Positions 18,913 to 36,206 of a stretch of 64,000 nt of DNA are shown in pieces (the stretch's first letter is position 1; every line of letters starts with the position of its first letter). The notes beneath the pieces are model-generated. The model saw nothing but the letters and a program-made list of their open reading frames with translations, did not search any database and was not told the origin of the DNA. The DNA comes from Thermoanaerobaculaceae bacterium (GTDB lineage Bacteria > Acidobacteriota > Thermoanaerobaculia > Multivoradales > UBA5704): assembly GCA_963778565.1 (NCBI GenBank), contig CAVZUZ010000012.1, positions 1,400,827 to 1,464,826 on the forward strand. Direction: 5' to 3'. Position numbers and translations under genes: made by a program.

Positions 18913-18934
18913 GATCCCTCCTTGGTCTTTCAGG

Positions 18935-19547
18935 CTAGGCCGACCCGATGCCAACCATGAAGTCGTACCCATCCGGGCCGCAGACTCTCTCGAGCGCAGC
19001 GAGCACGCGTTTGGATTTGGCCGCCGTGTCACGAGGCCCCGAGATGTAGAGAGGCTTGCCGTCCTTGCCGTACGGGAAAACGCGGTCGCCAAGGCGAGGG
19101 TCGACGCCGGCGAAGATCCGGCTCGCCACGGGATAATCATGATGCGGTGACAGGCCGAACTGCTGAGCGTACGCGACAGCGCCCTCGACCAGAGCTCGCG
19201 CGTTCGCCGCTGAGAGAGCTGCGAATGAACCATCTGCCGCGAAGCGGGTTCTCTGACGGTACTCGGCGGTTGCGAAGACGCCGAAGACCACATCCTTGAC
19301 GCCGAGGCAGAAGACGTCCAACAGAAACGTCGCCATGGCGATTCGACCGGCCCCAAGCTCTCGGGCGACCACGACGTTGCCGAGCCCGAGGCTCGAAGAG
19401 GCTTCGTGGGATCAGGCACTCGTAGATGGGAGAATCCGCCGGCACCGTGGGGAAACGCACCTGCGGCAGGTTCGGGCCCGCCGCTTGGCGCTTCGCTTTC
19501 CGGCGCGCAGCGGCCTTCTGCTCGCGACGCTTGCTGGGTTTTCCCAT
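18935..19547 (-). CDS. hypothetical protein, apparent frameshift near 19395 (basic N-terminus plus conserved-looking C-terminal domain)
   Basis: ORF 19137..19547 gives MGKPSKRREQKAAARRKAKRQAAGPNLPQVRFPTVPADSPIYECLIP then degenerates; ORF 18935..19372 frame continues ...EASSSLGLGNVVVARELGAGRIAMATFLLDV... upstream of its annotated start, so the two probably form one roughly 200-aa protein. Confidence 0.4.
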
Positions 19548-19672
19548 TGCTGTAGCCTTGCCTCTGCCGGGAGCTGACTGGAGAGACTCTACATGGAGGA
19601 GCTCTCGACGGCGGCGCGGGGGTTATGACGTAGAATAATCTCTCCATTCGGGCACCACCGGAGCCGCGTGAC

Positions 19673-20680
19673 ATGTCTCAGGATTCGAAGCGTCCCGACG
19701 TCGAACCGATGACGCGCGGTGTCTCCGAGGGCAGAGGCGCCTCCTCCGTCTCCGCGAGAGATTTCGCGGCAGACGATCGCTGCCGCTTCCGGCCCAGCAC
19801 GGTGGCGGGAGTCCGCATCGTCGCCAGGCTGACGGCTCGCTGCATCTTCCTCTGCGAGCACTGCCTGGCCAGCGCGGCGGGGAACGTCCGTTCCAGCGAC
19901 CGCAGCCTCGGCGATTGGCAGCGCATCCTGTCCGGGCTCCGCGGGATCGCCGCCCACAAGGTACTGCTGACCGGCGGCGAGCCCCTCCTCTTCGACGGCC
20001 TCGTCGAGCTCACCGCCCACATCGCCGAACAGGGCGTGAGCACCGATCTCAACAGCACTCTCTGGTCGATGACTCCGCGTCTGGCCCGGCGTCTCGCTGC
20101 GGCCGGCCTGACGGAGGCGTCGATCTCGCTGGAGGGGCCGGAGGAGGTTCACGATCGGCTGCACGGGCGCTCCGGCGCCTGCGCTCGTCTGAAGGCCGGG
20201 GTGCGGATGCTGCAAGACGTGGGCTCGATCGTGGACGGCTCGATGTGCGTTACGCCGATGAACCTGCCTCACGTGGCCTCGATGATCGAGGAGGCCGCGC
20301 GGATGGGCCTGGCCTCCTTCACGGTCTCGCGGATGATGCCCGTCGGACATGGGCTCAGCTGGGTCGGGCCCCGTGTCCCGCAGGAGAGCCTGACCGCGCT
20401 CCACGCCGATCTGGCGTCGGCCCGCGCCGGGGGATGCGGCATTCCCGTCCGCTGCGTCGGGCTTCTCGGCGCCCCCGGACCTCATGAATGCGAACAGGGG
20501 CGCACCCTGATCGGCATTCGCGCCGACGGGACGCTCGCGGCGTGCCCCCTCTCCCGGGACGACCCGCGGGGAGTGCCGAAGCCCGAGGAGGTGGGATTGG
20601 CCGCGGCCGTCGCGGCCGTGGGCGAATCCCTGCGAGCGCTGGCTTCGCCACGGATGTGCTATGGCCTGGAGGATCTCTGA
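19673..20680 (+). CDS. radical SAM/SPASM-domain protein (rSAM-1)
   Basis: 335 aa; CIFLCEHC (CxxxCxxC) radical SAM cluster motif; C-terminal Cys-rich CEQGRTLIGIRADGTLAACP SPASM/twitch-like region. Confidence 0.75.
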   Translation: MSQDSKRPDVEPMTRGVSEGRGASSVSARDFAADDRCRFRPSTVAGVRIVARLTARCIFLCEHCLASAAGNVRSSDRSLGDWQRILSGLRGIAAHKVLLTGGEPLLFDGLVELTAHIAEQGVSTDLNSTLWSMTPRLARRLAAAGLTEASISLEGPEEVHDRLHGRSGACARLKAGVRMLQDVGSIVDGSMCVTPMNLPHVASMIEEAARMGLASFTVSRMMPVGHGLSWVGPRVPQESLTALHADLASARAGGCGIPVRCVGLLGAPGPHECEQGRTLIGIRADGTLAACPLSRDDPRGVPKPEEVGLAAAVAAVGESLRALASPRMCYGLEDL

Positions 20681-20681
20681 A

Positions 20682-21692
20682 ATGACGATTCCCGCCTCGA
20701 CAGGCTCCATCCGCGAGGGCGCTGACCGCACCTGCCGCTTCCGGCCGATCGAGGCCGGCGGCTTTCGGGTGGCCCTCGAAGTGACCCGCCGCTGCAACCT
20801 CGCCTGTCTCCATTGCTTCGTGCCCAACGAGCCGCGCGATCCGGCCCTCCCGACATTGCTGGGCGTGCTGGGCGCCCTCGCCGGGCTCGGAGGCCGCAAA
20901 GTCATCCTGACCGGTGGCGAGCCCCTGCTCCGGGCCGACCTCGAGGAGATCATCCGCGCCGCCGCCGGCGCAGGCATGGGGGTCGACCTGAACAGCAACC
21001 TCCTGGGCCTGGACGATCGACGGGCGGACGCGCTCGTGGAGGCGGGCCTGGGCGAGGCAAGCGTGAGCTTCTACGGCGATCGGGACTTCCACGACCGGTT
21101 CGTGCGCCGCGCCGGGGCCTTCGACGAGGCGCTCGCGGCCTGTCACCGGCTGCGTGAGCGGCGCGTCGATCTCGACGTCCACGGGCCCGTCTGGGCCGGT
21201 AACCTCGGCTTCGCGGCAACGATCCACGACCTGGCGTGCTCGATGGGCGCCAAGAGCCTCACCCTCTTCCGCGTCATCGGGCTCGCCGGCACCGAGAACG
21301 GCAGGGTCTTCGCGGCGACCCGGTTCGGCGCCCATGTCGACGGCTTCGGCTCGCCGCCCGAGGACGAGCTGCGGCTGGCCATCCAATCCCTGCGGGAGAA
21401 GGCCCGGCTCCCCGTCCGGACGATCGGTTTCTGGGGCGACGACGTCTGCCGCGAGTGCGAGCAGGGAAGGTCGATCGTAGGCCTCGATTCGAATCTCAAC
21501 CTCTCCCCCTGCCTCCTCTCCCGGCGGCTCGAGCCGCTGCGGCGGACGGTCACGCAAGAGACGCTGGCAACGACCCTCGGAGCGCTCCGGGACGAGGTCC
21601 GGCGAGGCCTCTGGGCTCCGGTCTGCGTGCCGCCGCGGGAGGACGCGGCGACGGGGACCGGCGCGGCGGAGAGGGTGGAAGACGCGCGATGA
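20682..21692 (+). CDS. radical SAM/SPASM-domain protein (rSAM-2), paralog of rSAM-1
   Basis: CNLACLHC motif; C-terminal CRECEQGRSIVGLDSNLNLSPC; start ATG 20682 has GGAGGAT RBS (alternative ATG 20661); stop overlaps next gene. Confidence 0.75.
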   Translation: MTIPASTGSIREGADRTCRFRPIEAGGFRVALEVTRRCNLACLHCFVPNEPRDPALPTLLGVLGALAGLGGRKVILTGGEPLLRADLEEIIRAAAGAGMGVDLNSNLLGLDDRRADALVEAGLGEASVSFYGDRDFHDRFVRRAGAFDEALAACHRLRERRVDLDVHGPVWAGNLGFAATIHDLACSMGAKSLTLFRVIGLAGTENGRVFAATRFGAHVDGFGSPPEDELRLAIQSLREKARLPVRTIGFWGDDVCRECEQGRSIVGLDSNLNLSPCLLSRRLEPLRRTVTQETLATTLGALRDEVRRGLWAPVCVPPREDAATGTGAAERVEDAR

Positions 21693-23906
21693 GGGCCCTG
21701 CCCATCCGGGTCCTGGCCATGATCTACCCGATCGAGCGGCACGTGGGGCATTGGGCCTGCCCGTCACCTTCGATCGACCTGGTCAGAGTGCTGATGGAGG
21801 GGGAGGACCTCGAGGGCCGGGTGCTGGAGGCCGTCAGACGGCACGATCCGCAGGTGGTCGCCATCATCGGCAAGCGACCCGGAGAGTATCTCGATCTCCT
21901 GGACCGGCTCGCGCCGCGCGTGCCCTCGCTGGCCCGCGTACCGCGGGTCTATCGCTGCCAGAACACGGTGCTCGCGGCGCGCCTGGGAAGCGGCGGGCCG
22001 GCACCGGCCCGGGAGGAGCTGGCCGCCCTCAGCCACTGGTTCGCGTTCGCCTGCGATCCCCGGTTTTCGCTCGTTCTGGTGCAGACCCTGGACGACGTCG
22101 AGCTGATCGCGCGGGCCCTGGCGCCGACCCGGGTCGCGCCATGCCCCTACGGCTACGACCCGGCGGTTTTCGATCCGGAGCTTCCCCGAGCTGCAACGGT
22201 CCGTCGACGTCGGGTGCTACTTCAAGCTGCGCGACGATCCGCGGCGCCGGCGCCTGGTCGAGACCGCCGAGAGGATCTGCCGGCGGCGCGGCTGGACGTT
22301 CCTTTTCGTCGAGGGCCGCTACGGGCACGACTACGCCCGCCAGATCCGCGAGACGAAGGTTTGTCTCCACCTCTCGGGCCTGCGGGAAGTCCCGTTCCGG
22401 ATGTACGAGACGACCGCGCTCGGGGCGCTCTTCCTGACGGATCCGCTCCGTTGCCGGGTCGAGACGCTGTTCGAGCGGGGCCTGGAATACCTCACCTACC
22501 GGCCCGACCTCTCGGACCTCGAGGAAGTCCTGGAATCGGTGCTTCTGGATTCTCGACGGCGGCAGGAGATTGCCCGGCGGGGGAAGGCGAGGGCGGCCGC
22601 GTACGCCTGGCCGGGCATCGCGGAGCGCTGGGTGGTGCCGGCCCTCGATTCGATCCTGGCCGCCACTCCCGCCATCGATCCCACCGAGCACTTCCGGGGC
22701 GAGGTCGGGCCGATCGAGCACCCGGAGCTGCAGGAATGCGGGATCGATATCCGCAACATCGGCTGGACCCTCGGCAACGAGTGCCCCTACCGCTGCACGC
22801 ACTGCTATTCCATGTCCGCTCGGCGCAAGGGCAGGGATCTGTCGGTGCCGCTCGTCGATCGGATCGTCGACCAGTTGGCCCGCAACGGCGTCGAGACGGT
22901 CAACCTGGGGGGCAATGAGCCGCTCTTCACCAACGGGCCGGATCCCCGGCACAGCCTGCTTCACTACATCATCGAGAGGCTGGCCGGCGCGGGGATCAAG
23001 GTCGGCCTCACCACGGCCGGCATCACGCTCGTCCAACTGGTCCGGCACCATCCCGAGGCCGCCCGCCGGCTCAACGACGTCGACGTCAGCCTCGATTCCC
23101 CCTTCGCGGAGGAGCACGACCGCAACCGCGGCGCTCGCCTCTATCCGCAGGCGATCGAGGCGCTGGAGATCTGCGGCAGGTTGGGCGTGGACCGCTCGAT
23201 CATCATGTGCGGCATGAGTTGGAACTTCACCCCTCGCCACCTCCGGGCCCTGGTGAGCGTGGCCCGCCGTCACCAGGCCCACGTCCGGATCAATCCGCTC
23301 AAGCCCGTCGAGCCCGGCCACGCCGCCTCCGCCCTCGAGCCCGGCCAGTACTACGCCGGGTTCTCGCTGCTCATGGACCTGTGCGACCCCGTCGACCTCG
23401 GCGAGCCGCCCCTGGCGACGATGATGCGGTTTCAAGGGGCGCGCGGCTGCCCCTGCGGCCGGACGTCCTTGCGGATCCATTCCATCACGCCCGAAGGCCG
23501 GGTCCCGGTCTCGCCCTGCGTCTACCTGCACGACTACAAGGTCGGCGACCTTGCGACGGACGAGCTGTACGACATCGTCCGGTCACCGCAGTTCCGCTCC
23601 TTCCGGCAACGCAACGCGAACCCGCACGTCATCCCCGGTTGCGAGGGCTGCCCCGTGCTCGACTTCTGCCGGGGAGGATGCGCTGCCCGGTCCTACCTCC
23701 ATCACGCGCACGCGACCGGCGAGCGCTCCCTTTTCCAGCGCGATCCCTACTGCCCGGTGGAGATCGCTCCCGGAGACCCCTTCCCGGTCGAGCCCCGCCT
23801 GCCCCGGGATATGGTCCTCGTCCATCGGGACTATCTCTGCACCTGGATCGGCACGCCCAAGGCCATGGCGCCGGAGGCATCCCGGGAGGCATCTCCATGC
23901 ATGTGA
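21689..23906 (+). CDS. CgeB-like glycosyltransferase fused to radical SAM/SPASM domain (rSAM-3), apparent frameshift near 22190
   Basis: N-terminal frame (from ATG 21689) MRALPIRVLAMIYP...; after a 1-nt offset near 22185-22195 the frame of ORF 22401..23906 is open upstream and reads ...VDVGCYFKLRDDPRRRRLVETAERICRRRGWTFLFVEGRYGHDYARQIRETKVCLHLSGLREVPFRMYETTALGALFLTD (CgeB-family GT motif R.YE..A.GA.L.TD) continuing without stop into CPYRCTHC radical SAM core and Cys-rich SPASM tail. Confidence 0.6.
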
Positions 23907-24967
23907 TGACGCTCGACGATCTCGAGACCTACACGAAACCGCTCTGCTCGGCACCCCAGTACGCGCGGAAGGTCGAGAACTTCCGCCGAGTCGAGCGCTC
24001 CTTCCTGCGGCGGGACGAGCGCTGCGAGGGCCGGCCGGTCCACCTTCACCTGGAAGCGACGGGAGACTGCAACCTGCCCTGTCCCATCTGCCCGCGGGGC
24101 CGCGGCCACATCGAACGCACCGGGCATCTCCCCTTCGACGTTTTCGAGAAGCTGTTCTCGGAGCTGTCGGACGGGCTCTGCAACATCGTCATCAGCGGTT
24201 GGGGAGAGCCGCTCCTCAACCCGGCGACGACGGCGATGATCGCCCACGCGACCCGCCACGCGGTCCCGGTCTTCCTGAACACCAACGGGACGGTCCTCGC
24301 CGGCAGAGTGGAGGAGCTCCTGGACGCCAGGCTGACCCTGGTGAACGTCTCCATCGACGGCGCCGTCTCGCGGAGCACGCACGTCTACACGCAGGCCGCT
24401 CCGTTCGAGCGGGTGATCGAAGGCGTCGCCCGGCTGCGGCAGGCGAAGGACCGCCGCGGCTGCCGCCATCCTGTCATTCACGGCCAGTTCATCGTCAACG
24501 AGGGTACCGTCGACGAGATCGAGCCGTTGACGAAGTGGGCCTTCGACCTCGGCGTCGATCACGTCAAGTTCAAGCGCCGGCACCACACCATGCCGGGGCA
24601 GGAGGAGAGGAGCAAAGTGCTGTCCGTCGACAAGCTGCTGGAGATCACGCAGCGGCGAAGGCTGGAGAGCTGGCGAGAGGACCTCGGCTTCTCCCACGTC
24701 ACCTGCGCCCATCCGTGGCACTCGGTCTACCTCGGGTGCACGGGGAAGCTCGGCCTTTGCAGTTGGGATCCCCATCAGGTCGTGACCCTGGGCAGCACGG
24801 ATGAAGACTTCGAGTCGATCTGGAACGGCGACGCGATGCGAACGGTCAGGAGATGGCATACGGGGAGGGACCCGGAGGTCGGCGACCCGTGCCTGAAGTG
24901 CAACCGCCTGCCGGGCTACCTGCACCACGAGGACGCGGGCGAGCGGGAGCCCACGGCGCACGTTTAG
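23897..24967 (+). CDS. radical SAM/SPASM-domain protein (rSAM-4)
   Basis: start ATG 23897 after GGGAGG; CNLPCPIC motif; C-terminal CAHPWHSVYLGCTGKLGLCSWD...CLKCN SPASM motif. Confidence 0.8.
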   Translation: MHVMTLDDLETYTKPLCSAPQYARKVENFRRVERSFLRRDERCEGRPVHLHLEATGDCNLPCPICPRGRGHIERTGHLPFDVFEKLFSELSDGLCNIVISGWGEPLLNPATTAMIAHATRHAVPVFLNTNGTVLAGRVEELLDARLTLVNVSIDGAVSRSTHVYTQAAPFERVIEGVARLRQAKDRRGCRHPVIHGQFIVNEGTVDEIEPLTKWAFDLGVDHVKFKRRHHTMPGQEERSKVLSVDKLLEITQRRRLESWREDLGFSHVTCAHPWHSVYLGCTGKLGLCSWDPHQVVTLGSTDEDFESIWNGDAMRTVRRWHTGRDPEVGDPCLKCNRLPGYLHHEDAGEREPTAHV

Positions 24968-24993
24968 CGCGCCGCGAGAGGACGTTCGGCAAG

Positions 24994-25998
24994 GTGAGCG
25001 AGACGACTGCGGGGCGGCGGGTCCTGTTGGCCGGCCACCGAGCCTACTCCGCTCGGGGGCTGAGGGAGCTCCTGTGCCGGCAGGGCCACGAGGTCGTCGG
25101 CTTCAGCAGGGGGCCGGTGGAAAGGCAGGACTTCACGGCGACCGGCCCGGTCGACGGGCTCGATCGCCATCCGCGTCTCCGGGAGACGTTCGATACCCTG
25201 ATCAATTTCGTCGTCCTCAGGTTCGAGAGCCGGCACCGCAATCTCGCCTACCTGGACGCGGTGCTGCGGTTCTGCCGCAGCCACCGGGTAGGGCATCTGA
25301 TCCACATCTCTTCGATGAGCGTGTACCGCGACTCGGTGCGCCTGGTCACGGAACGGGCGGCGACGCAGCCCGCGCCGGCCGGGAGCGCCACCTATGCGGC
25401 GATCAAGCTCGCCGGCGAGACTCGCCTGCGCGACAACCTCCCCGCCGGGACGCGGCTGACGCTCATCCGTCCCGCGTGCATCCTGAGCGCCGACATGCCC
25501 CACCCGCTGGGCAGCGTGGGGGAGCGCCTGGCCTCCGGGAAGGTGCTGGTGCTGGGCAGGCCTTCCCGGCAGCGGCCGGTGATCGGCCGCAGCGTCCTGC
25601 AGCGCGCTCTCGGCCGTCTCGTCTCTTCGCCTCCGGTGGGGAGCCACGAGGTTCTCCTCTTCGTCGACCGGAACTCCCCGACGTGCATGGAGTACCTTCA
25701 GGCCTGCTGCGAGCTCCTGGGAAGCGGCACCGGCGCGGTCTCGCGCCCCGCTCCGGTCTGGATCGCCCGCCTTCTCCTCCGCGAGCTGCGGCGAGGCGGA
25801 CGTCCGCCGCGGCAGGCCGTCGCCAGGGGGCTGTCCACGGTCCGCCAGCGGTGGACCGGGCAACGGTACGACCCCCGCTGGACGGAGGAACGGCTCGGCA
25901 TGCCGCTCGCCACCCGCTGGCTCGACGAGCTGGCGGGAGCCTCCGATCATCAGATCGCCGCCGGCTCCACCGGCTGCCGGCGGGCGGCCGAGTCGTAG
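24994..25998 (+). CDS. NAD-dependent epimerase/dehydratase family protein
   Basis: GTG 24994 start; VLLAGHRAYSARGLRELLCRQGHEVVGF Rossmann-like N-terminus; length and composition consistent with SDR-extended sugar epimerases; start uncertain. Confidence 0.45.
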   Translation: MSETTAGRRVLLAGHRAYSARGLRELLCRQGHEVVGFSRGPVERQDFTATGPVDGLDRHPRLRETFDTLINFVVLRFESRHRNLAYLDAVLRFCRSHRVGHLIHISSMSVYRDSVRLVTERAATQPAPAGSATYAAIKLAGETRLRDNLPAGTRLTLIRPACILSADMPHPLGSVGERLASGKVLVLGRPSRQRPVIGRSVLQRALGRLVSSPPVGSHEVLLFVDRNSPTCMEYLQACCELLGSGTGAVSRPAPVWIARLLLRELRRGGRPPRQAVARGLSTVRQRWTGQRYDPRWTEERLGMPLATRWLDELAGASDHQIAAGSTGCRRAAES

Positions 25999-26981
25999 GC
26001 GGCCTCGATGACGGCCAGGGCCCGAATGGCGTCCGCGGGACCGGCCCGCAGCGGCGCCCCTGCCCTGAGATGGTCGGCGAAGTTCTCGAGCAGGCGGATC
26101 TTCATGTCCGCGACGCTGAGCCGCGGCAGCTCGTATTCCCGCAGGAAGCGGATGCGGTCGAAGCACTTCAGCGGGCTGCCCAGCTCGAGAAAACCGTCGG
26201 TGCCCATCACCACGTCCTTCGGCCCCGCGATGGGAAACCGGCCCACGCCGTAGGCGCAACAGGCCGCCTCGATCACGCCCAGCGCGCCGCTGCGGTAGCG
26301 GAGATCGACCAGGGCAATGTCCTCCACCTCGACCTCGTGGTGCAGCGTCGCCGTGCGGGCGAAGACGTCCGCCACTTCCAGGCCGGTGACCCAGGCCATC
26401 AGGTCGACCTGGTGGATGCCGTTCATCAGCAGCACGCCGCCGCCGCTCGTCTCCTTCCTGCTCCGCCAGGACGATGGATATTCCTCGCAGCGCATGCCGT
26501 GCTCCCAGTAGGCCCTGGATTTGTAGCCGAGCGCGGAGACACGGGTGAAGACGGTGCTGCCCAGCGTCCCCTCGGAGAGGATCTCCCGGGCCCGCTCGGC
26601 AGAGGGAAGAAAGCGGCGCTCGAGCCAGGGCGCAATGCTGACTCCGCACTCCCGGCCGACCTCCACCAGCTCCCGGGCCTGGCCGACGTTCAGGGTGAAC
26701 GGCTTCTCGAGGAGAACGTGTTTGCCGGCGCGCGCGGCCCGGGTCGCCATCTCCAGGTGAAGGTGGTGCGGCACGGCCAGCGAGACGGCCTCGATCGCCG
26801 GGTCCTCGAGCAGGCGTTCGGGCTCCGAGGTCCAAGGTAGGCCGAAACGCTCTCCCAGCATCTTGGCGGCCCTCGGCTCGGCGTCGGCAACCATGCGGAA
26901 GCTCGACCCGCGGGGATTCCCGCATCGCCTGGGCGTGGAGCTTGCCTGCCGCTCCGCAGCCGACGAGTCCCGTCCGAATGG
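25950..26981 (-). CDS. Gfo/Idh/MocA-family oxidoreductase (WbpB-like sugar dehydrogenase), apparent frameshift near 26895; continuous in-frame with upstream DegT gene
   Basis: N-terminal Rossmann TGLVGCGAAGKLHAQAMRESPRVEL in the 1283-aa ORF frame (TTG 26981 with GGGAGGAGAG RBS), then frame break; ORF 25950..26894 continues MVADAEPRAAKMLGERFGLPW...HLHLEMATRAARAGKHVLLEKP (Gfo/Idh/MocA EKP motif). Confidence 0.65.
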   Translation of the reverse strand, partial: PFGRDSSAAERQASSTPRRCGNPRGSSFRMVADAEPRAAKMLGERFGLPWTSEPERLLEDPAIEAVSLAVPHHLHLEMATRAARAGKHVLLEKPFTLNVGQARELVEVGRECGVSIAPWLERRFLPSAERAREILSEGTLGSTVFTRVSALGYKSRAYWEHGMRCEEYPSSWRSRKETSGGGVLLMNGIHQVDLMAWVTGLEVADVFARTATLHHEVEVEDIALVDLRYRSGALGVIEAACCAYGVGRFPIAGPKDVVMGTDGFLELGSPLKCFDRIRFLREYELPRLSVADMKIRLLENFADHLRAGAPLRAGPADAIRALAVIEAAYDSAARRQPVEPAAI

Positions 26982-28149
26982 GCTCGCTCAAGCGCGGCTC
27001 TCCTCCCGGAGCCGATCGAGCGTCTCGAGGATCACGCCGGCATACCGGTCCACGAGCTTCCGGCTCGTAGGCCGTGAAGGCGTCGAGGAAGAACACCCGC
27101 CGCATGACGTCCTCGGCCGTGAGCCACGGCCCGCCCGGCCGCAGGTGGCCGGCCAGCGAAGGCAGATCGGCGAGGTAGCCGGCGACCCTTCGCGCGCGGA
27201 CGCCGCGGGCCTGCAAGGCGTCCACGAGCCGGTCGCGGAGGGCGCCGCTCGCGCCAGCGGCCAGCAGCAGCTCGTTGCGGAAGTAGACGCGGCCGGCGGG
27301 CGGGCGATCCAGGTTGGCGAAGCATCCTCGCTCGCGAAGGCGAGCCCGCAGGTGCTCGCACGCCCGCTTGCGCACGGCGGCCTGCTCCGGCAGGTCCTTC
27401 AGGGACTCATGCGCCAGGGCCACGAGGATCGGGGAAGGGATGAGCTTGAAGCCACGGCCGACGCCGGCGAGCGCCCTCCTTTCAGGCGGCGCCGCCAGCA
27501 GCCGGCGCGGATGGCCGAGCTCCATGGCCCGATAGTACAGGTCGTCGCGGTCGGTCAGCAGGGCCCCTCCCTCGCCGCCGGAGACGAGCTTCGCCGCCTG
27601 GAAGCTGCAAAAGGACACGTCGCCATAGCTCCCGACCGGCCGCCCGCCGAAAGCGGCGCCGTGGGCGTGCGAGACGTCCTCGACCAGCGCCAGGCCGTGC
27701 TCGTCGCACAGGGCCCGCAGCTCGTCCAGGCGCAACGCTTCGCCGAACATGTGCGTCACGACGACGGCCCGCACCGTGCCGTCCAGCAGGCGGCGCACCG
27801 CTTCCGGGTCGATGTGGCAGGTGTCGGGCAAGACATCGGCCAGGGCGACGCGCGCTCCGCACTGCACGGCCGGCAGCACGGAGGCCCAGTGCCCGATCGC
27901 CGACGCGATCACCGTGTCGCCCGGGCCGACGCCCAACGCCTTCAGGGCCGAGAAACAGGCCGACGTGCCGTTGACGCAACTCAGCGCACGGCGGACGCCG
28001 AAGAGCGCGGCCACGTCCCGCTCGAACGCCTCGAGCGTCTCCGGATGCCAGGACGTGGCTCCGGCCTGCAGGAGCCCGGCCACCCGTTCGAGAGCCCGGC
28101 TGCCGATCCGGGGCCATTGGAAGAACGCGGCTTCGTCCTCAAGGCTCAT
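26982..28149 (-). CDS. DegT/DnrJ/EryC1/StrS-family PLP-dependent sugar aminotransferase (WbpE-like); no stop before the Gfo/Idh/MocA domain (possible fusion)
   Basis: ATG 28149 after GGGAGG RBS; MSLEDEAAFFQWP...GDTVIASAIGHWAS...DVSHAHGAAF...SFQAAKLVSGGEGGAL (PLP-lysine region); 389 aa to the start of the oxidoreductase domain with no intervening stop codon. Confidence 0.7.
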
Positions 28150-29030
28150 GGGAGACAGACCTCCCTGCCATCCTGCCTGCTGCGGGCGGCCTTTCTTTCG
28201 ATATCGTGCCACAATTGACCCAGGGTCTGAGATTCTATCCCTCTCGACAAGGTGAGATGTCGAAGCAGCCGATCGAAGCCTTCCACCTTGCCGCCGTCTT
28301 TCGCGGACGACGGTCCGTCTTTCCCCACCCTCAGAAAAGAGAAACTGTGGGCCGCAAAGGTCAGGTATCCATACCCGATGCTCAGGGCTTCGTCCGCAAA
28401 CGCCGCCAGCAATTCGGCAGGCCCCTTGTCGATATCGAATTTCATCCTGCGGGGTGCACCGTTTGCGTCCGCTACATTGAACCATGAGATCGGCAACTCC
28501 CATGAGCCATCGCGTTCCGCCAGCTCGAATTTCGTCCAATCGACATGGCAGTACCTGTGGCCGTAGAGGCTCGAGCTGTCCAAATGGATCCCGTTCTCCC
28601 TCAGCGCCACGATCGACTCCTCGTTCGCCGCGTAATACCCGGCCCGGTGGGCGACCACTCTCCTGCCCGTCCACGCCTCGAGCTTCTCCTTGCCATGGCC
28701 GATGAGCTCGGTCTGCTCCTGCAGCGGGCTGTCGCACAGGAACGGCTTTCCCGTCACGAACGACGGATGGGTGTGCAGTTGAACGTCGTGGCCCCTCGCG
28801 AGCATCTCGTCGCACATGGCGGCCATCAGCTTTTCACCGATGACCTTGTACTCGAACACATTGACGAAGAACGTTGCCCTGATCCCGTAACGCTCGCAGA
28901 TCTCCATCACCAGCGGAAAGCCGCAGTGCACGCCCTCGCACGTGCACCAGGCACCGTTCGGGTACTTCACCAGGGGTCCGGGCGCCTGGGTGAAATGCTC
29001 GGTGTCTATGGTTACGATCAGCTTGCTCAT
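28146..29030 (-). CDS. polysaccharide deacetylase-like (CE4-like) family protein
   Basis: 294 aa; IVTIDTEHF N-terminal motif and His-rich segments; stop overlaps DegT start (ATGA). Confidence 0.45.
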   Translation of the reverse strand: MSKLIVTIDTEHFTQAPGPLVKYPNGAWCTCEGVHCGFPLVMEICERYGIRATFFVNVFEYKVIGEKLMAAMCDEMLARGHDVQLHTHPSFVTGKPFLCDSPLQEQTELIGHGKEKLEAWTGRRVVAHRAGYYAANEESIVALRENGIHLDSSSLYGHRYCHVDWTKFELAERDGSWELPISWFNVADANGAPRRMKFDIDKGPAELLAAFADEALSIGYGYLTFAAHSFSFLRVGKDGPSSAKDGGKVEGFDRLLRHLTLSRGIESQTLGQLWHDIERKAARSRQDGREVCLP

Positions 29031-29926
29031 AGGCTCGCGAACACTGACCGCAACGCGGTCCCCACCACCGCCCTGGACAGCTCGTGGTTGACGTAATCGT
29101 GCGCCTCCACGTTGGCTTGCGGAGCGGATGACGTAATCTGCCTCATGGCCTCCAGGATGTCGTCATCGCATGCCGCCAGGCGGCAATGCGGATACGCGTA
29201 GCTGTAGATGACTTCCTTCCCTTTGCCCATGGCCTCGATCACCATCATGGAGAGCCCGTCATGTTCCGGGGTCCTCAGCAAGATGCTGCATTTGGCGTAC
29301 AGCGCAGCCATCTCCGGCCCCGACAGCCAGCCCCGGTAGTGAATGTTGTCGAGCGTCGGCTCTCCGGCCCCATCGTTGCCGGTTATGTAGAAGGGAATCC
29401 CGGGAAACCCCCTGGCGGCGGCAACCAGGCCGTCGATGCCGTAGAACCGCGACTTGCCCGTGGGCAGAAGGCTCACCACGGCATGCGCCGCGGGCGGCCG
29501 GTCCAACGCCATGTCCTGGTCGAAAGAGATGAGGGGGATGACGTCCGCGTGAATCCCATGGTCCCGCAATTCGGCGGCGATCCAGGGGGCGCACGCCAGG
29601 TGCCTGGTGATGGCTTCGTAACCCGCATCCTCATTCACAGGACCGAGCTCGAGCACATCGGAGCCGATCCAGTGATTGACGTACGGTTTCTTCGTCAGAG
29701 CTGCGAATCGCAGGTACTCGCTGCCGTGCTTGTTACGGCCGAGGTTGTACAACACGTCGGCGGCCTCCAGCAGATGGCTCTGAACCGAAAGCGGCACGTT
29801 CTTCTGAGCTTCAATGACCTGAAAGCCCTCGTGGCGCAGCAACCTGGCTACTTGCGGGGCCTGGCACGTATCGTGTCTGTAGTCCCCGATGAGACCGATT
29901 CTCGGCATATGGATTCCGATCATGGG
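29027..29926 (-). CDS. glycosyltransferase family 1 (GT4-like)
   Basis: C-terminal LLRTPEHDGLSMMVIEAMGKGKEVI matches the GT1 E-x7-E region; start chosen at internal ATG near the upstream gene stop. Confidence 0.6.
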   Translation of the reverse strand, partial: PMIGIHMPRIGLIGDYRHDTCQAPQVARLLRHEGFQVIEAQKNVPLSVQSHLLEAADVLYNLGRNKHGSEYLRFAALTKKPYVNHWIGSDVLELGPVNEDAGYEAITRHLACAPWIAAELRDHGIHADVIPLISFDQDMALDRPPAAHAVVSLLPTGKSRFYGIDGLVAAARGFPGIPFYITGNDGAGEPTLDNIHYRGWLSGPEMAALYAKCSILLRTPEHDGLSMMVIEAMGKGKEVIYSYAYPHCRLAACDDDILEAMRQITSSAPQANVEAHDYVNHELSRAVVGTALRSVFASL

Positions 29927-31170
29927 CCGATCTCGGCAGCCAGCGACCGTGACTCCACGATATTGTCCTCCATCGAGCAGTACTTCCAGCCTCCATACCT
30001 GCCGATGCTGTAAACACCCCGTGCGCACCACTCACGGTGGAAGCGCTCGTACAGCGCCCGGGACTCCGGAGTGATGTGGACATAGGCGGGGTCCATCACG
30101 ACATGATGATGTGAAACCAGGTTCTGCGTCGTGACGACGCCGGTCGCGGCGAGCCCGTCCAGGATGCCTTGAAGCGTATCTGCGAAGTCGATCTCGGCCT
30201 TCGCGCTGAAGCCGCTCTCCACGTAGAGGCTCATGCGATGGTGGGGAACGACGTTGTCGTAGTAGCCCACGCGATAGAACGGGTACTTCTTCTCGGGGAA
30301 GTACACCCAGTGCAGGCGATCGTTTCCTTTTGCGTCGAAGCCGAGGTTGAGGGCCAGGACCTTGCTGGCGGACAGGCGCCTCGCCGCCTCGGCCTCGCCG
30401 ACGCAGGCCAGCATCGTCGTAAGCGGGGCGGAGGAGACCAGGTAACGAAATGTAATCTCCCGTTGGTTCGTGGTGGCGACGCGCGCTTGCAGGTCGACCC
30501 TCTCCAGGCGCTCCCCATACGAGAGCCTGCCGCCATCCAGGTCTCGCAACAGGGCCTCGACGTACTGAAAGGCACCGTCCCGCGGGTACGTAAACGTGGT
30601 GTTGTAGGACTTGTCATCGGGCCGCTTGAAGTTCCTTATGATGTCGTCGACGCCGGCCGCCGGAAAAAACCTGCCCATGGCTTCCGGAGCCAAGGATGAA
30701 AGGTCCGTCGCCAGGATCTTTTCGTTGTAGGGCACGAGGAATCTTTCAGCGATCCCTTGCCCGAATCGCTCGTAGAGCATGGCCCTGAACCCGCAGGCCC
30801 CCTGCGGACTCTCTCTGAAATAGAGGTGATACAGGCAATCGATGAATTCCTGCTTGGGCAGTTGATGGATGTTCTTCTGAAAGGGATAATCGATGAAACG
30901 GCCCCGGTAATGGATGGCGGCGCATTTGTGGATGCGCACGACGGCATCAGGGGGCATTCTGGACAGCAGGAAGCTCTCGATACCCGCGTTGCGGAAATGA
31001 AAGAAGTGTCCTGAATAGTCCCAGGTGAATCCCGCCTGGTGAATGGTCTTGCAATACCCCCCGGGCTGAGGGTCTCTCTCGATGATCAGGTAATTGTCGG
31101 AAGCGAGGAAGTTGGCGAACGCCAACCCGGTGACCCCCGCGCCGACGATCAGGTAATCGACGTCGGCCAT
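29920..31170 (-). CDS. FAD-dependent oxidoreductase, UDP-galactopyranose-mutase-like/amine-oxidase-like fold
   Basis: 416 aa; DYLIVGAGVTGLAFANFL dinucleotide-binding motif; C-terminal GRYGGWKYCSMEDNIV resembles Glf-type flavoenzymes. Confidence 0.55.
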   Translation of the reverse strand: MADVDYLIVGAGVTGLAFANFLASDNYLIIERDPQPGGYCKTIHQAGFTWDYSGHFFHFRNAGIESFLLSRMPPDAVVRIHKCAAIHYRGRFIDYPFQKNIHQLPKQEFIDCLYHLYFRESPQGACGFRAMLYERFGQGIAERFLVPYNEKILATDLSSLAPEAMGRFFPAAGVDDIIRNFKRPDDKSYNTTFTYPRDGAFQYVEALLRDLDGGRLSYGERLERVDLQARVATTNQREITFRYLVSSAPLTTMLACVGEAEAARRLSASKVLALNLGFDAKGNDRLHWVYFPEKKYPFYRVGYYDNVVPHHRMSLYVESGFSAKAEIDFADTLQGILDGLAATGVVTTQNLVSHHHVVMDPAYVHITPESRALYERFHREWCARGVYSIGRYGGWKYCSMEDNIVESRSLAAEIGP

Positions 31171-31209
31171 TCGCTCAGTCCGTGCCGCCGGCGGCGTGGA
31201 ACGAATGGC

Positions 31210-32309
31210 TCAGCACGGTGACCTCCCAAGGTTCGCGAAGAATTCTGCCACCGTCGAGAAGGGCTCCTCGCACAGCTCGTGCTCCTGCCTGTGCTCCTGG
31301 ATGCCGCGATACCCCGTACAGGCCCGGCACACATCGCTGAAGCGCGCCTCGCAGTGGCTGAGCAGCAGGTCGATATAGCGGTCGTTGTCGAGGGAATAGA
31401 TCTGCTCGAACCGTTCTCGCGAGAGGTCGCCGATGACCATCGTGGCGTTGCCGTCGTCGGCGTAGCACGCATTCAACCGGCCATCGGGCAGCACCGTGTG
31501 CTTGTGAAACAGAAAGGCGCAGGGAATGCTTCCTTTGCTCGTCTGTGGCTTTAAATGGATGTCGAGCGAACGCAGGTCGCCGGACGTGATGAGACCGCCC
31601 CAATTCGAAAACCGGTCATGTGGGATTCGCACTCGAACCCGGCGTTGCTCGAGGTCCTCGAGCAGCTCGCGCAGACGGGGATGGCAGTCTTCCGGGCGAA
31701 AGGACGCGGCGGTCCGCAAACGCACTTCGACCCGCGCGGCCACGTCGGGCCAGTCGCTCAGCGATTCGAGATTTCGCAAGACGGTGTGGAAAAGCTCCGG
31801 CCGAGCCCGAGTGATCGCCGCGAACGTGTCCTCGTCGTGTCCGTAGACGCTGACCGACAGCCAACCCAGCTTCGTGAGCCGCCTGAGACGATCGCGGGCA
31901 GGCCGCGACAGCACGGTCAGGTTGGTACAGAATGAAAAGCCGGCTACGCCTCGGTGCCGCTCCAGGAGCGCTCGAGCTTGTCCAGAAACCGCGGGTCGAT
32001 GAACGCCTCGCCCAGGATGGGTGTCAGGCCGAACCGCGTGAATCCGTACTCGCAGGCCTTGTCCACAACCTCTGCGAAGAGCGCGTCGGGCATGATCTGA
32101 CGCGGGATGGACGTCTTCGGATACGCACAGAAGCGGCATTTCAAATTGCAGATCGTCGAAGGCGTGATGTACAGGCGTTCGGTCAGGCTCGGCACGCGCA
32201 GTTGGCTTACGTGGGCGATTCGGCGCAGGATGCGCGCGAGCTTGTCGTCGCGCGAGGCGGGTACGTCGGCGAGCCGAGCCTGAGAACCGTCAACCATCAG
32301 TCGTCTCAC
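31210..32309 (-). CDS. radical SAM domain protein (rSAM-5), apparent frameshift near 31975
   Basis: ORF 31944..32309 gives ITPSTICNLKCRFCAY (CxxxCxxC) ...AEVVDKACEYGFTRFGLTPILGEAFIDPRFLDKLERS then stops; ORF 31210..32139 frame continues ...LLERHRGVAGFSFCTNLTVLSRPARDRL... ; the two overlap in an LERS/LERH window consistent with a 1-nt indel. Confidence 0.65.
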
Positions 32310-32398
32310 CCCATGCGGGACGAGCGCTGATCCTAGCGTCGCCGCACGGCCTTGTCAAAGCGGCGGCGCTGGCCCGGAACCGTGAATGAACCTTCGCC

Positions 32399-34370
32399 CT
32401 AGAAGCTCATCTCCAGCTTCACGCTCCGCAGCGTGCCCTTGTCCAGCTTCTCCTTGTCCTGCACTTTCAGGGTCCAGGTGCCCTTCGGGGCCTTGCCGAC
32501 GAGCGTCAGGAGGCCGGGAGCATTGATGGCGTCGTAGGTCTTCTTGATGTTGTCCGTGCCGCCCCCCTGCCGGTTGTGGAGGATGACCGGCGCCACTCCC
32601 GTGGCGGCGGGCGGAAGCAAGCTGACCACGAGATCGCCGATGTAGGTGTGCTCGATGTCCACCGTCACCTTGATCGCTTTCAGCGGCGAGGTCTCGGGTA
32701 CCTGCACGGCGAGCTGAGCCGTCCCGAGATCGGGGATCGGCACGTCCTGGACCGTCGAGTGGACCACGACGGCTTGGGGTTGAGCGGGCAGGGCGAGATC
32801 CACGGCCTTTTTCGCATCCAGCCGTCCATAGCCGTACCAGGCGCTGTGGCCGCCGGCGTCGTACTTACCGTTCGCCGGGTCGATCTGCTCGCAGCACCGC
32901 TTGAGGATGTCTTTCACCTCGTCGTGCCGCAGCTCGGGATTCCGGGAGAGGACGAGCGCGGCCACTCCCGCCGCTCCGGGACAGGCGCTCGAGGTGCCGC
33001 CGAAGTTGTTGGTGTAGTTGCCCTTGACGTCGCCGAGAGACTCCCGGCCCGAGTTGTAACCCGGCGCGCCGCTGCGGTCGGTCGTGAAGATGCCCGGCGT
33101 CTGCGCTTGGATCGAGTCGTTGCTGGGAAAGGCGCACCAGTTCGCCTTGCCGAAGTCGCTGTAGGCGCTCTTCCTGCCCGCATCGTTGCAGGCCGCGACG
33201 GCGACCACCCCGGGGTGGCTGGCATAGCCGTCGTTGTCGACGCTCTCGTTGCCGTTGCCGGCCGCCCAGGTGATGACGCAGCCGCGCCCGTTGCGCCCAT
33301 GGGTGAGGGCGTGCTCGATCGCCAGACGGGTGGAGTCGGGCAGCGGGACCTTCCTGGTGTGCACGGGATCCTGCGGGTCGAACCACTTGCCGTCCTGCGG
33401 CCCCCAACTACAGGAGATGACGTCGGCGCCGTGATCGGCGGCCCACTCGAAGGCGTCCGCCTCTTCCAGCGAGCCCAGATCCGAAACCAGGCGAATCGGC
33501 ATGAGCTTCGCCGCCGGGGCTACCCCGGAGGCGCCGAACTTCCCGTCGGCCGCGGCGACTCCGGCGCAGGAGGTGCCGTGATTGTCACCTTGCCCCGGGC
33601 GCGGATCGTCCGTGCCGAACGACGCGTCGCGCTTGGCCACGATCTTGCCGGGCGAGCTGAATTCTTCATGGTCGATGTCGACGCCGTCGTCGATCACCGC
33701 GATCGTGGTCCCCTCGCCCCGCGTGACGGCCCACGCCGCCTCGACCTTGGCGTGCGCGTCGATGGACTTCCCCCCCACCGTCATCTTCTTGAGGTGCCAC
33801 TGTCCAGGAAAGGCGGCGCGGCGGCGAACCTCGCGCACCAGCTCGGCGTGGCAGAGGCTCGACGGTGGCCTCGTCCAGCAGCCGCTGGGCGATCTTGAAC
33901 ACCTCCTGGCCGGTGTCTTCCGGGGCGGAGACGAAGTAGGCGTTGCGGGCATACGGCAGGGGGCGCCTCACCTCCAGCCCGTAGCCCTTGAGGAGCCGCG
34001 TGCACGCCGACGGGCTCTGGTCGTCGTAAAACTTCACGAAGAAGTTCTCCGTGTAGACGACCGGCTCTTCCGAGGCCCTGTCCAGCAGCACCCGGCCGGC
34101 GAACTTGATCGCCGGCTCCTTCTTCAGGACGGCGCGGGCCTCGTCGCGCAAGGCACGGACCCCTTTGCGCGCCGTCGTGCACAGCACCTCCACTCCGGCT
34201 CGCTTGAACCTCGCCACCGTCTCGAACTGATCGACGACATTGCGGGCCGCGAGGGAGAGCGGCTCCAGTCGCAGATCGGCGGAGTCGGCCGTGCGCACCA
34301 CCAGGTGCTCGTCGCTCTCCACCAGAGTCAGCTTCGTGCCACCTTTGCCGCCGTAGGTCACCGTGAACAT
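32399..34370 (-). CDS. subtilisin-like S8 serine peptidase with N-terminal pro-domain and C-terminal proprotein-convertase P-domain, apparent frameshift near 33855
   Basis: catalytic motifs AVIDDGVD (Asp), NHGTSCAGVAAA (His), GGTSSACPGAAGVAAL (Ser); C-terminal HTYIGDLVVSL...GTWTLKV P-domain; N-terminal region is in ORF 33666..34409 frame (MFTVTYGG... with AGGAGAGG RBS) and joins the main frame at ...LLDEATVEP/LCHAELV. Confidence 0.75.
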
Positions 34371-34411
34371 CGTAGACTGCCTCTCCTGGGAAAGCTTGGT
34401 AGACTCCACGT

Positions 34412-34906
34412 ATGCCGGAGCCCGGGGGTTTTCCTAATTATCCGCGTCAACTCTCACAAAGTCAAAAGCAGGACGGGAAACCGTTCCGTTTGCAGGAGGA
34501 TACCTACGCGGTGCACGGGCGCGAGCCGGGCTCACCGCCGAAGGACGCTTTGTTCACGCTGAAGGGAGGAGACATCGCGGTCCATCGCGGCGACCCCGCG
34601 GCAGCGGCGGCGAAAGGGCGGCAGGTCGGACCCGTGTACGCGCTCCCGGAAGGTCCCCTCGCCGTGCCAACCGGCCTGCTGTTCATACGCTTCAAGGAGG
34701 GCACTGCCGCCGCGGAGCGCCGGGGGGAGATCGAGCGGAGCGGCTACGAGATCGTCAAGATCCCGGGCTATGCACCCCACGCCGCCTGGGTCCGCTCGCG
34801 CGACGGCGACATCGCTTCCTCTCTCCGGGACATGCGATCCCTGGCGTCGCTGCGCGGCGTCGAGAACGTCGAGCCGCAGATGCTGATGGAGAGCGTCAAG
34901 CGCTAG
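34412..34906 (+). CDS. stand-alone subtilase-propeptide-like protein (paralog of the S8 pro-domain; possible inhibitor/chaperone)
   Basis: 164-aa ORF divergent from the S8 gene; its sequence (LFIRFKEGTAAAERRGEIERSGYEIVKIPGYAPHAAWV...) aligns in pattern with the S8 N-terminal pro-region (FFVKFYDDQSPSACTRLLKGYGLEVRRPLPYARNAYFV). Confidence 0.4.
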   Translation: MPEPGGFPNYPRQLSQSQKQDGKPFRLQEDTYAVHGREPGSPPKDALFTLKGGDIAVHRGDPAAAAAKGRQVGPVYALPEGPLAVPTGLLFIRFKEGTAAAERRGEIERSGYEIVKIPGYAPHAAWVRSRDGDIASSLRDMRSLASLRGVENVEPQMLMESVKR

Positions 34907-35093
34907 GGCCGCCTCGGCGCGCCGGCAACCAGGAGCAGGCACTGCCGCCGGCAGGCGCCGGTTTCCTCTACGGAGACGAGGGGGGCAGGGGTTCGGAGAG
35001 GCTCCAGCGAGGCGGCCGGAGACGCCTTATACGGGGTTTTCAGAGGCTCCCCTTTTCTGCTCAGTGCCCCCCGTTCCTCTCCTAGGCCGACAC

Positions 35094-35447: not shown

Positions 35448-35464
35448 ACCCGTCCAGTGTGGTC

Positions 35465-35758: not shown

Positions 35759-35840
35759 ACCAACAAACTCCTAACAAGGACGAAGGCCACCTCGTGCCTA
35801 TGCGCACCGGCTGATCATAGCAGCTTCGGCCAGTCTCTAC

Positions 35841-36164: not shown

Positions 36165-36206
36165 CCGACTGCCGTGCTATCATCCTCGCGTAACTGCTCC
36201 GGGGAG
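36165..36206 (+). repeat. direct repeat copy 2, immediately upstream of the RBS/start of gene 36217
   Basis: see copy 1; ends in GGGGAGG Shine-Dalgarno of the downstream gene. Confidence 0.7.

Follow-up and report, generated by a model that had tools for sequence, protein, structure and literature searches.

A 64,000-nucleotide stretch of contig CAVZUZ010000012.1 from a Thermoanaerobaculaceae bacterium (phylum Acidobacteriota), hereafter the window, carries, from 19.67 to 32.30 kb, two convergent operons of tightly packed genes that encode five radical S-adenosylmethionine (SAM) proteins in the company of sugar enzymes. Comparison with other genomes and metagenomes shows that the five radical SAM proteins belong to four families (the paralogous pair A/B, D, E, and L) that form a conserved functional set, and that the regular companions of this set are a CgeB-like GT-B glycosyltransferase (GT), a carbohydrate esterase family 4 (CE4) deacetylase and a short-chain dehydrogenase/reductase (SDR), to which one subtype adds a coupled Gfo/Idh/MocA dehydrogenase and DegT aminotransferase. 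We rate the cluster as a new form of radical SAM-tailored sugar biosynthesis, in which the radical SAM team is tied to the GT/CE4/SDR module. With a probability of about one half, we read the locus as a biosynthetic cluster for a heavily tailored, amino-sugar-containing metabolite or glycoside, and as neither a cluster for a ribosomally synthesized and post-translationally modified peptide (RiPP) nor a standard O-antigen or capsule locus. We found no description of such a cluster in the literature on radical SAM proteins with these partner genes.

Radical SAM proteins and partner enzymes

The G+C content of the window is about 67%, which crowds raw lists of open reading frames (ORFs) with spurious frames; genes were therefore called by third-position GC (GC3), and every junction was checked by translation. 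With Pfam assignments added, the plus-strand operon reads A, B, C-D, E, F and the minus-strand operon L, K, J, I, H, G (Table 1). Neighboring genes share stop and start bases: ATGA at B/C-D, K/J, J/I and I/H, TGATG at C-D/E, and TTGA at H/G, where G starts with the TTG. An alternative start for B is the ATG at 20682, just past the stop codon of A. The frame of F is open from 24853, and its start is likely the GTG that follows a GAGAGGA motif. The block from I to L differs in composition (G+C about 0.615, GC3 0.78-0.85) from genes A to H (about 0.70 and 0.85-0.91), and this module may have been acquired separately.

The sequence-only reading of this DNA had counted five radical SAM genes here, and all five products (A, B, D, E and L) do match Pfam PF04055, scoring 49-72 bits at a gathering cut-off of 29.5. 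It had also placed one of them in a fusion with a CgeB-like GT, which the Glyco_trans_1_2, Radical_SAM and SPASM matches along the frameshift-corrected C-D protein support, and the fifth on the opposite strand, where L carries Radical_SAM and SPASM domains and the motif CNLKCRFC. The SDR, DegT, Gfo/Idh/MocA, CE4 and GT genes that it saw between them are all supported by Pfam, the SDR weakly. Of its four tandem, coupled radical SAM/SPASM genes, the coupling stands, with overlaps at B/C-D and C-D/E, as do the SPASM domains of D and E; Pfam gives A and B no SPASM match.

The remaining CxxxCxxC motifs are CIFLCEHC, CNLACLHC, CPYRCTHC and CNLPCPIC. D, E and L pass the SPASM model PF13186, and D has nine invariant extra cysteines, the full SPASM complement. 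Family alignments of A and B reveal four to five further conserved cysteines in a twitch-like pattern, and an N-terminal ERCRFRP motif kept throughout the A family. Each of the five proteins is predicted to hold an auxiliary cluster, with a full SPASM domain in D, and together they probably hold about eleven [4Fe-4S] clusters. A and B are paralogs (34% identity, BLASTP E 1e-35), whereas D, E and L have only the generic radical SAM core in common.

None of the five reaches the cut-off of a curated NCBIfam model, the families tested being MftC, PqqE, AhbC/D, NirJ, anSME-like, BlsE, MoaA, HpnH, viperin and W-maturase; even the best matches, at 76-100 bits, fall short of cut-offs of 265-725. A and B score about 76-80 bits with AhbD, NirJ or pseudo-SAM models (cut-offs of at least 500), D 90 bits with MftC (cut-off 265), and E 100 bits with the tungsten-enzyme maturase model W_rSAM_matur (cut-off 380), while the best match of L is only 29 bits. 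Sequence and fold searches of the PDB likewise retrieved only distant relatives at 12-20% identity: SkfB, BlsE, PqqE, SuiB, DesII, MoaA and viperin for A, whose AlphaFold2 model (pLDDT 86.9) is nearest to SkfB and BlsE, and BlsE, anSME, SuiB, CteB and PqqE for D, with BlsE its top Foldseek match by E-value. The nearest folds thus mix radical SAM enzymes that act on sugars or nucleotides (BlsE, DesII, MoaA, viperin) with enzymes that act on peptides, and these relatives are too distant and generic for functional transfer.

Among the partner enzymes, two proteins contain a CgeB-like GT domain, the C domain scoring 49.4 bits and J 29.0 bits with PF13524 (cut-off 25). Among NCBIfam models, G gives sub-threshold matches to inositol 2-dehydrogenase (126 bits) and an archaeal UDP-GlcNAc 3-dehydrogenase (107 bits), and H to PseC, LegC and DesI. 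K, which had been described as a Glf-like flavoenzyme, is indeed a flavoprotein, scoring 80 bits with a PRK07208-type model, but the UDP-galactopyranose mutase (UGM) model covers only its N-terminal dinucleotide-binding part (residues 5-68). An identical K protein is encoded on an independent short-read Logan contig (ERR12036784), and the gene calls of an independent Logan contig include the same 298-residue J gene.

These families suggest a scheme in which G would oxidize the hydroxyl group of a sugar or cyclitol, giving a ketone that H would then transaminate to an amine. The C domain and J, both CgeB-like GTs, would join one or more nucleotide-activated sugars to an acceptor, and the CE4 protein I would strip an N-acetyl group. 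The radical SAM proteins would abstract hydrogens from sugar C-H bonds for O2-independent oxidation, epimerization, deoxygenation or C-C rearrangement, and F and K could provide reduction or oxidation steps. The fusion of a GT to D suggests that D works on the substrate or product of that GT, on which it would act directly.

Table 1. Genes of the locus and features next to it. Positions are those of the window.
Feature	Product or content	Position	Strand	Support
Upstream gene	Four-helix-bundle protein, relative of 23S rRNA intervening-sequence proteins	18286-18999	-	31.2 bits (Pfam cut-off 33.8)
A	Small radical SAM protein, 335 aa	19673-20680	+	Pfam Radical_SAM E 5e-14
B	Radical SAM protein, 343 aa, paralog of A	20661-21692	+	Pfam Radical_SAM E 9e-20
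C-D	CgeB-like GT (aa ~1-325) fused to radical SAM/SPASM protein D (aa ~326-738)	21689-23906	+	
E	Radical SAM protein, 356 aa, partial SPASM/twitch C-terminal domain	23897-24967	+	Pfam Radical_SAM, SPASM
F	SDR/epimerase-like	~24994-25998	+	Pfam Epimerase E 6.5e-7 (weak)
G	Gfo/Idh/MocA NAD-dependent dehydrogenase	25950-26991	-	Pfam GFO_IDH_MocA with C-terminal domains
H	DegT/DnrJ/EryC1-family pyridoxal phosphate (PLP) aminotransferase	26988-28149	-	Pfam DegT E 5e-59
I	CE4-type polysaccharide deacetylase, 294 aa	28146-29030	-	Pfam Polysacc_deac_1 E 2e-7
J	Second CgeB-like GT, 298 aa	29027-29923	-	Pfam Glyco_trans_1_2 E 1.2e-6
K	FAD-dependent oxidoreductase, amine-oxidase/UGM-like superfamily, 416 aa	29920-31170	-	Pfam Amino_oxidase, NAD_binding_8
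I-J-K-L	Block of lower G+C	28146-32297	-	
L	Radical SAM protein, partial SPASM/twitch domain	31210-32297	-	Pfam Radical_SAM, SPASM on corrected protein
S8 (neighbor)	Subtilase with C-terminal proprotein-convertase P-domain	32399-34409	-	Pfam Peptidase_S8, P_proprotein
ORF O (neighbor)	164 aa	34412-34906	+	No family assignment
Downstream region	G+C 0.59-0.64, ORFs without Pfam or PADLOC match	34907-38900		
ORF in downstream region		36441-37193	-	No Pfam or PADLOC match
ORF in downstream region	Membrane-like	37540-38448	+	No Pfam or PADLOC match
RoxA-like array	Five tandem paralogous large proteins, RoxA-like cytochrome c; two of five frameshifted	39600-51426		
RoxA-like paralog		41911-44817		RoxA-like/cytochrome c Pfam signatures
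RoxA-like paralog	1130 aa, fused to GMC oxidoreductase	44838-48230		RoxA-like/cytochrome c Pfam signatures
RoxA-like paralog		49942-51426		RoxA-like/cytochrome c Pfam signatures

Conservation of the radical SAM set and spread of the D family

The A family is very rare. It forms about 30 clusters among 5.8 billion proteins, has five representatives above 300 bits among 1.84 billion proteins, and occurs in two of 185,579 species genomes, one a Gemmataceae metagenome-assembled genome (MAG) and the other a Cytophagia MAG. Orthologs of A (37-70% identity) are present in about 12 loci. The A and B pair is found in about 12 loci, from the Cytophagia MAG and from metagenomes, and their G+C contents of 0.32-0.70 indicate that the cluster has spread over very different lineages.

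A B-like gene directly follows the A-like gene in 11 of these 12 loci, and D or a more distant radical SAM/SPASM relative (D') is encoded in nearly all of them. A stand-alone ortholog of the fused GT (44-64% identity) is present in nine of the 12, among them L006, L008, L010, L033, L035, L036 and L037, a CE4 deacetylase in nine or ten, an E-like radical SAM protein in eight or nine, and one or two L-like proteins in six. Orthologs of E (49-54% identity) are encoded in L003, L007, L008, L010, L031, L033 and L036, those of L (34-51%) in L008 and L036 and, as two copies each, in L003, L010 and L033, and F-like SDRs (41-48%) in L010 and L036. The Gfo and DegT pair is present in L007, L031, L035 and a 60.8-kb JGI contig; identity to G is about 59-60% in L007 and L031 and 45% in L035, and identity to H 55-57% in L007 and L031. 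L010, from the Cytophagia MAG, and L036 are syntenic over 11-12 genes, in the order E, SPASM protein, D', GT, CE4, A, B, kinase-like protein, F, L and then a Gfo-like protein. The compact operon of L010 covers 4970-16916 and that of L033 5193-19636. Around this core the loci vary, adding AsnB-like amidotransferases, Pkinase-like proteins, methyl- and sulfotransferases, FGE-sulfatase domains or an ABC exporter.

Orthologs of all five radical SAM proteins of the window are encoded in one operon of the Gemmataceae MAG (62% identity for D, 62% for A, 59% for B, 51% for L and 54% for E), along with a second L paralog. The outcome that would have undone the sequence-only reading, radical SAM proteins of unrelated characterized families in a locus that relatives do not conserve, is not what was found: the radical SAM set is kept as a unit in other phyla.

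No other GT-radical SAM/SPASM fusion like C-D occurs among the D matches listed. The D orthologs of L007 (8268-10004) and L031 (3177-4946) have a different N-terminal extension of about 200 residues, in which no similarity to the GT of the window was detected and which in L031 has no Pfam match; the partner to which D is fused thus differs between lineages.

As a separate observation, FGE-sulfatase domains are encoded in L006 (15791-17497) and L008 (3508-4389), once fused to a radical SAM protein (568 residues), and sulfotransferases in L008 and L033. These genes hint at possible sulfation of the product in some lineages.

The D family reaches far beyond this cluster. Stand-alone proteins of 405-430 residues from Actinomycetes, Alphaproteobacteria, Terriglobia and Gemmataceae share 60-72% identity with the D half of C-D, and we flag the family as a widespread radical enzyme of uncharacterized function that keeps this level of identity across phyla. 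When D-like contexts were sampled without reference to A or B, the neighbors were a B12-type radical SAM protein, a small diphosphatase-like protein, NUDIX protein or APH-type kinase, and often efflux pumps and tailoring enzymes. D adjoins a radical SAM protein of 516-544 residues, to which Pfam assigns a B12-binding domain in L001, in a metagenome contig (L074), in Nocardia mangyaensis (L075) and in Streptomyces antimycoticus (L076); no annotated radical SAM gene is adjacent to D in L072. Within these cassettes a small inorganic-diphosphatase-like protein or an APH-type kinase comes next, and the surroundings are conjugative plasmids or the vicinity of integrase or Tn3 genes. D-like genes lie on plasmids of Streptomyces clavuligerus (pF1D35B, L071), Phaeobacter inhibens (L072) and Enterococcus (pM190262, L073), and on integrase/Tn3 islands of Actinoalloteichus and Nocardia. 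The cassette of S. antimycoticus is followed by bacimethrin-like genes (encoding thymidylate-synthase-like, nucleoside deoxyribosyltransferase-like and ThiD-like kinase proteins and TenA). These contexts point to a D substrate that is small and probably bears a phosphate or nucleotide.

In another context, two small radical SAM proteins, about 27% identical to A and B, flank a DegT aminotransferase and are followed by an uncharacterized protein, a D ortholog (60-64% identity) and a PPDK_N/phosphoenolpyruvate-utilizer-type kinase. This arrangement, found in Bradyrhizobium murdochi, Acidimicrobiia and Caulobacterales, is a second, more widespread cluster type that is likewise uncharacterized. 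It is exemplified by L011 (B. murdochi WSM1741, 1607-13574), with further cases in L028/L016, L012, L013, L015, L021, L022, L048, L051, L053, L056 and L063, and no protein of the Bradyrhizobium cluster scores above an NCBIfam cut-off. A strict link between D and DegT, which held in 17 of 19 D loci at first, was dropped after it recurred in only about two of ten in the unbiased sample of D-like contexts.

Competing explanations and the surroundings of the locus

Conserved co-localization with GT, CE4, SDR, Gfo and DegT genes favors sugar or small-molecule chemistry over peptide maturation. Several observations weigh against the amino-sugar reading of the locus. Each chemical step of the scheme is deduced from the families to which the proteins belong. 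By fold and profile, the closest matches of A (SkfB, PqqE, SuiB) and of D (anSME, SuiB, CteB) are enzymes that modify peptides or proteins. No glycosyl genes are found within 10 kb of the Gemmataceae operon, which shows that the radical SAM set can occur without them. Counterparts of I, J and K are missing from other loci, where no homolog of K was detected and the CE4 genes belong to another subfamily without a BLAST match to I; together with the lower GC3 of these genes, this indicates that part of the sugar module of the window may be lineage-specific. Furthermore, surface polysaccharides are the typical setting of CgeB-like GTs and CE4 enzymes, RmlB and RmlC genes lie 11-13 kb upstream of the locus, and five genes are frameshifted in this assembly.

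A more far-reaching possibility, to which we give a substantial though less than even chance, is that five to seven radical SAM proteins (A/B, D or D', E, L and further SPASM proteins), working as a fixed team on one glycosylated intermediate, build an unrecognized class of carbohydrate-derived metabolite or cofactor by chemistry that lacks a described counterpart, such as radical C-C coupling of amino sugars or rearrangement of their rings. The D family would then be a radical module shared by at least three types of pathway, its substrate probably bearing a nucleotide or phosphate. The cluster is conserved from Acidobacteriota to Planctomycetota and Bacteroidota.

Alternatively, the locus could build or modify a cell-envelope polysaccharide or glycoconjugate, such as a capsule, an S-layer glycan or a spore-like coat glycan, with the radical SAM proteins serving to epimerize, dehydrogenate or deoxygenate sugars anaerobically, either in nucleotide-sugar precursors or within the polymer. 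The recurrence of CgeB-like GT domains and CE4 genes across loci would fit this, as would the additional GT2, GT4, GT28 and GT61 genes of L006 and L010, the DUF6311 protein of L033, the Gfo and DegT pair, which is typical of 3-amino sugar synthesis, and the RmlB, RmlC, nucleotidyltransferase and UppP genes upstream in the window. However, unrelated housekeeping genes separate the rml genes from the locus, and by Pfam none of the locus genes encodes an initiating phosphoglycosyltransferase, Wzx or Wzy, all 13 proteins between 19.67 and 34.41 kb being otherwise assigned, which agrees with the earlier remark that the locus resembles no described O-antigen or capsule locus. In the related loci examined, too, neither these proteins nor a transporter of the Wzm/Wzt type was identified, the single exporter seen being one fused ABC protein in L033; this argues against a standard O-antigen or capsule locus. 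The recurring Pkinase/APH-like, AsnB-like, sulfotransferase, methyltransferase and aldo-keto reductase genes look more like those of small-molecule pathways, which the efflux-pump contexts of D-like genes also resemble. A surface glycan thus seems to us a rather unlikely product.

Maturation of a peptide or protein is a less probable explanation still. The radical SAM/SPASM proteins would then modify an unrecognized substrate, possibly encoded elsewhere, which the GTs would glycosylate and the S8 protease would process. Consistent with this are the SPASM domains of D, E and L, the complete cysteine complement of D, the appearance of MftC, SkfB, PqqE, SuiB, CteB and anSME among the best sub-threshold NCBIfam and PDB relatives, and the position of the protease directly upstream of L on the same strand. 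An all-versus-all BLAST of intergenic small ORFs from six loci, though, gave chance-level matches only and no conserved small ORF, and inspection of two lower-GC loci (L033 and L010) revealed no plausible precursor, only a small membrane protein. The 11-codon mini-ORF upstream of A, which the sequence-only reading had singled out, exists, but runs from the ATG at 19593 to the TGA at 19628 (product MEELSTAARGL) rather than over 19591..19626, and it too found no counterpart in this screen. No protein of the locus has a Pfam match to a PqqD/RiPP recognition element (RRE) domain, fused or stand-alone, and the radical SAM motifs lie some 40-60 residues from the N-termini, which are too short to hold one. 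The lack of a conserved small ORF and of a PqqD/RRE match makes a RiPP unlikely; with no curated maturase model reached, the earlier impression that the locus fits no described RiPP class therefore holds.

The protease itself is as previously described, kexin-like in that the frameshift-corrected protein has a Peptidase_S8 domain (141.9 bits) followed by a P_proprotein domain (55.7 bits); the ORF at 33666-34409 encodes its N-terminal portion and is not a separate gene. About 100 nucleotides of non-coding DNA separate it from L, and neither S8 nor ORF O has a detectable homolog in any related locus compared, which removes the ground for counting the protease as part of the system. ORF O had been taken for a stand-alone propeptide-like paralog, a candidate that we rejected: no significant resemblance to the N-terminus of S8 could be detected (BLASTP E=37, with a Smith-Waterman score under the shuffle mean), and it has no Pfam or PADLOC match; S8 gives a PADLOC 'subtilase' match of 44 bits. 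Both are probably bystanders outside the system.

It could also be that the cluster is a decaying, pseudogenized remnant. C-D, G, H, L and S8 each require a one-base correction, so that the GT-radical SAM fusion and the fifth radical SAM protein each appear as two ORFs in the raw sequence, and an independent Logan contig seems to break the DegT gene elsewhere, into ORFs of 250 and 172 residues. Yet apparent frameshifts are spread over the whole 64 kb, where about ten split continuous high-GC3 genes: near 14401-14415, 16635, 22183 (C-D, in a CCCC run at 22183-22187), 26898 (G), 27058 (H, close to the C-terminus), 31969 (L), 33857 (S8), 41312-41365, 48916 and 58022. Housekeeping genes for a RecD2-like helicase and an NtrC-type regulator are broken at a similar rate, close RecD2 homologs from Thermoanaerobaculia MAGs are intact at about 733 residues, L is intact (361 residues) on the independent short-read Logan contig from ERR12036784, and GC3 stays high to either side of each junction. 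CGAGC or GCTCG, moreover, lies within about 20 nucleotides of eight of the ten junctions, a pattern that points to base-calling or assembly errors of a systematic kind, perhaps where a motif is modified. From the breaks in housekeeping genes, the intact relatives and this sequence context, we treat the frameshifts as assembly errors, which for the five in the locus is most likely what they are, and decay appears improbable. The public annotation of the locus is broken by these probable sequencing frameshifts, which shorten the gene calls for the contig; of the C-D gene only a 501-residue ORF is on record.

Finally, an anti-phage or conflict system in which radical SAM proteins make nucleotide analogs, as viperin does, is highly improbable: D-like genes on plasmids and Tn3/integrase islands beside NUDIX or diphosphatase-like genes might suggest it, but the PADLOC viperin (pVip) assignment of the five radical SAM proteins had to be rejected at 17-36 bits, which reflects the generic core only, scans of viral contigs gave no detectable relative of A or D, and the constant partners are GT, CE4 and SDR proteins instead of kinases or nucleases.

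Homologs of the RecD2-like helicase assign the window to the Thermoanaerobaculia (Acidobacteriota). The genes that flank the locus are unrelated to it. The four-helix-bundle gene lies immediately upstream, with PdxJ also on that side, and the roughly 670 nucleotides that follow it hold no convincing gene, promoter-like site or Rfam match; a promoter and terminator scan of the 5' region of the locus found none, and Rfam detected no riboswitch or other RNA family in the whole window. On the far side, the region of lower G+C next to ORF O may be a separate island bordering the locus, beyond which lies the array of RoxA-like proteins (Table 1).

Comparison with known systems

A close parallel in logic is the synthesis of 2-deoxystreptamine aminoglycosides. 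In this pathway, BtrS is a DegT-type aminotransferase, BtrM a GT and BtrD a deacetylase. BtrN is a radical SAM alcohol dehydrogenase with two [4Fe-4S] clusters that acts on an aminocyclitol (PMC2996862). The locus of the window similarly places one or more auxiliary-cluster radical SAM proteins, a DegT aminotransferase (H), GT-B glycosyltransferases (the C domain and J) and an N-deacetylase (I) in one cluster, and could follow the same progression from alcohol to ketone to amine. It differs in that Pfam assigns none of its proteins to the DOI-synthase/inositol-phosphate-synthase (carbocycle-synthase) family, in that its deacetylase is of the CE4 and not the LmbE type, and in having five radical SAM proteins instead of one. 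The sequence-only reading had proposed either BtrN-like sugar dehydrogenases or epimerases or maturases of a peptide or protein; the co-localized carbohydrate enzymes favor the sugar side of this choice, without lending support to a BtrN-like identity as such, as BtrN is a weak match of about 26 bits for E and lies outside the top matches for A and D.

The pathway to TDP-desosamine combines a DegT aminotransferase (DesI) with a radical SAM enzyme (DesII) for C4 deoxygenation, and DesII is among the fold neighbors of A and D. The match of H to DesI is nonetheless sub-threshold (119 bits against a cut-off of 650), the radical SAM proteins of the locus align with DesII at TM-scores of 0.4-0.6 and 12-17% identity, none of them being specifically DesII-like, and the DegT gene here is translationally coupled to a Gfo dehydrogenase and not to a radical SAM gene. 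BlsE, a radical SAM enzyme that acts on a sugar nucleoside (PMC3715490), is the cytosylglucuronate decarboxylase of blasticidin S synthesis and the solved small-molecule radical SAM enzyme closest to A in size and fold (TM 0.67/0.68). Identity is 16-20%, however, matches to the NCBIfam BlsE model reach 33-40 bits where the cut-off is 400, and the locus has no blasticidin-type genes.

With RiPP radical SAM/SPASM maturases (MftC, PqqE, SkfB, SuiB, CteB, anSME) the proteins have in common the SPASM/twitch auxiliary-cluster architecture and their best sub-threshold profile and fold matches; they differ in that the locus lacks a precursor, an RRE/PqqD domain and a match to a curated model, and in that their constant partners are carbohydrate enzymes. 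The C domain and J are related through PF13524 to the CgeB GTs of spore maturation, but the window of this acidobacterial host has no spore-coat context. In hopanoid side-chain synthesis, HpnI is a GT, HpnK a deacetylase and HpnJ a radical SAM enzyme, and in tunicamycin synthesis TunA is an SDR, TunB a radical SAM enzyme, TunD a GT and TunE a deacetylase. By analogy, the locus would resemble these pathways in uniting a GT, an N-deacetylase, a radical SAM enzyme for sugar rearrangement or C-C coupling and sometimes an SDR. It differs in that the HpnH model (with B and E) and the HpnJ model (with a B12-type radical SAM protein of another locus) score far under their cut-offs, and in its lack of hopanoid- or uridine-related genes. 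BtrN, BlsE, DesI/DesII and the hopanoid and tunicamycin enzymes together offer a precedent for every type of step in the scheme, although the proteins of the locus do not qualify as members of these families.

Radical SAM sugar chemistry is known from a few single-enzyme cases, BtrN, DesII and BlsE among them. Four uncharacterized radical SAM families tied to a GT and a deacetylase over at least three phyla imply, instead, an undescribed multi-step radical pathway on a carbohydrate scaffold, and the loci collected here offer concrete ortholog sets for heterologous expression, including compact operons of 11-12 genes from lower-GC organisms (L010, L033 and L036).

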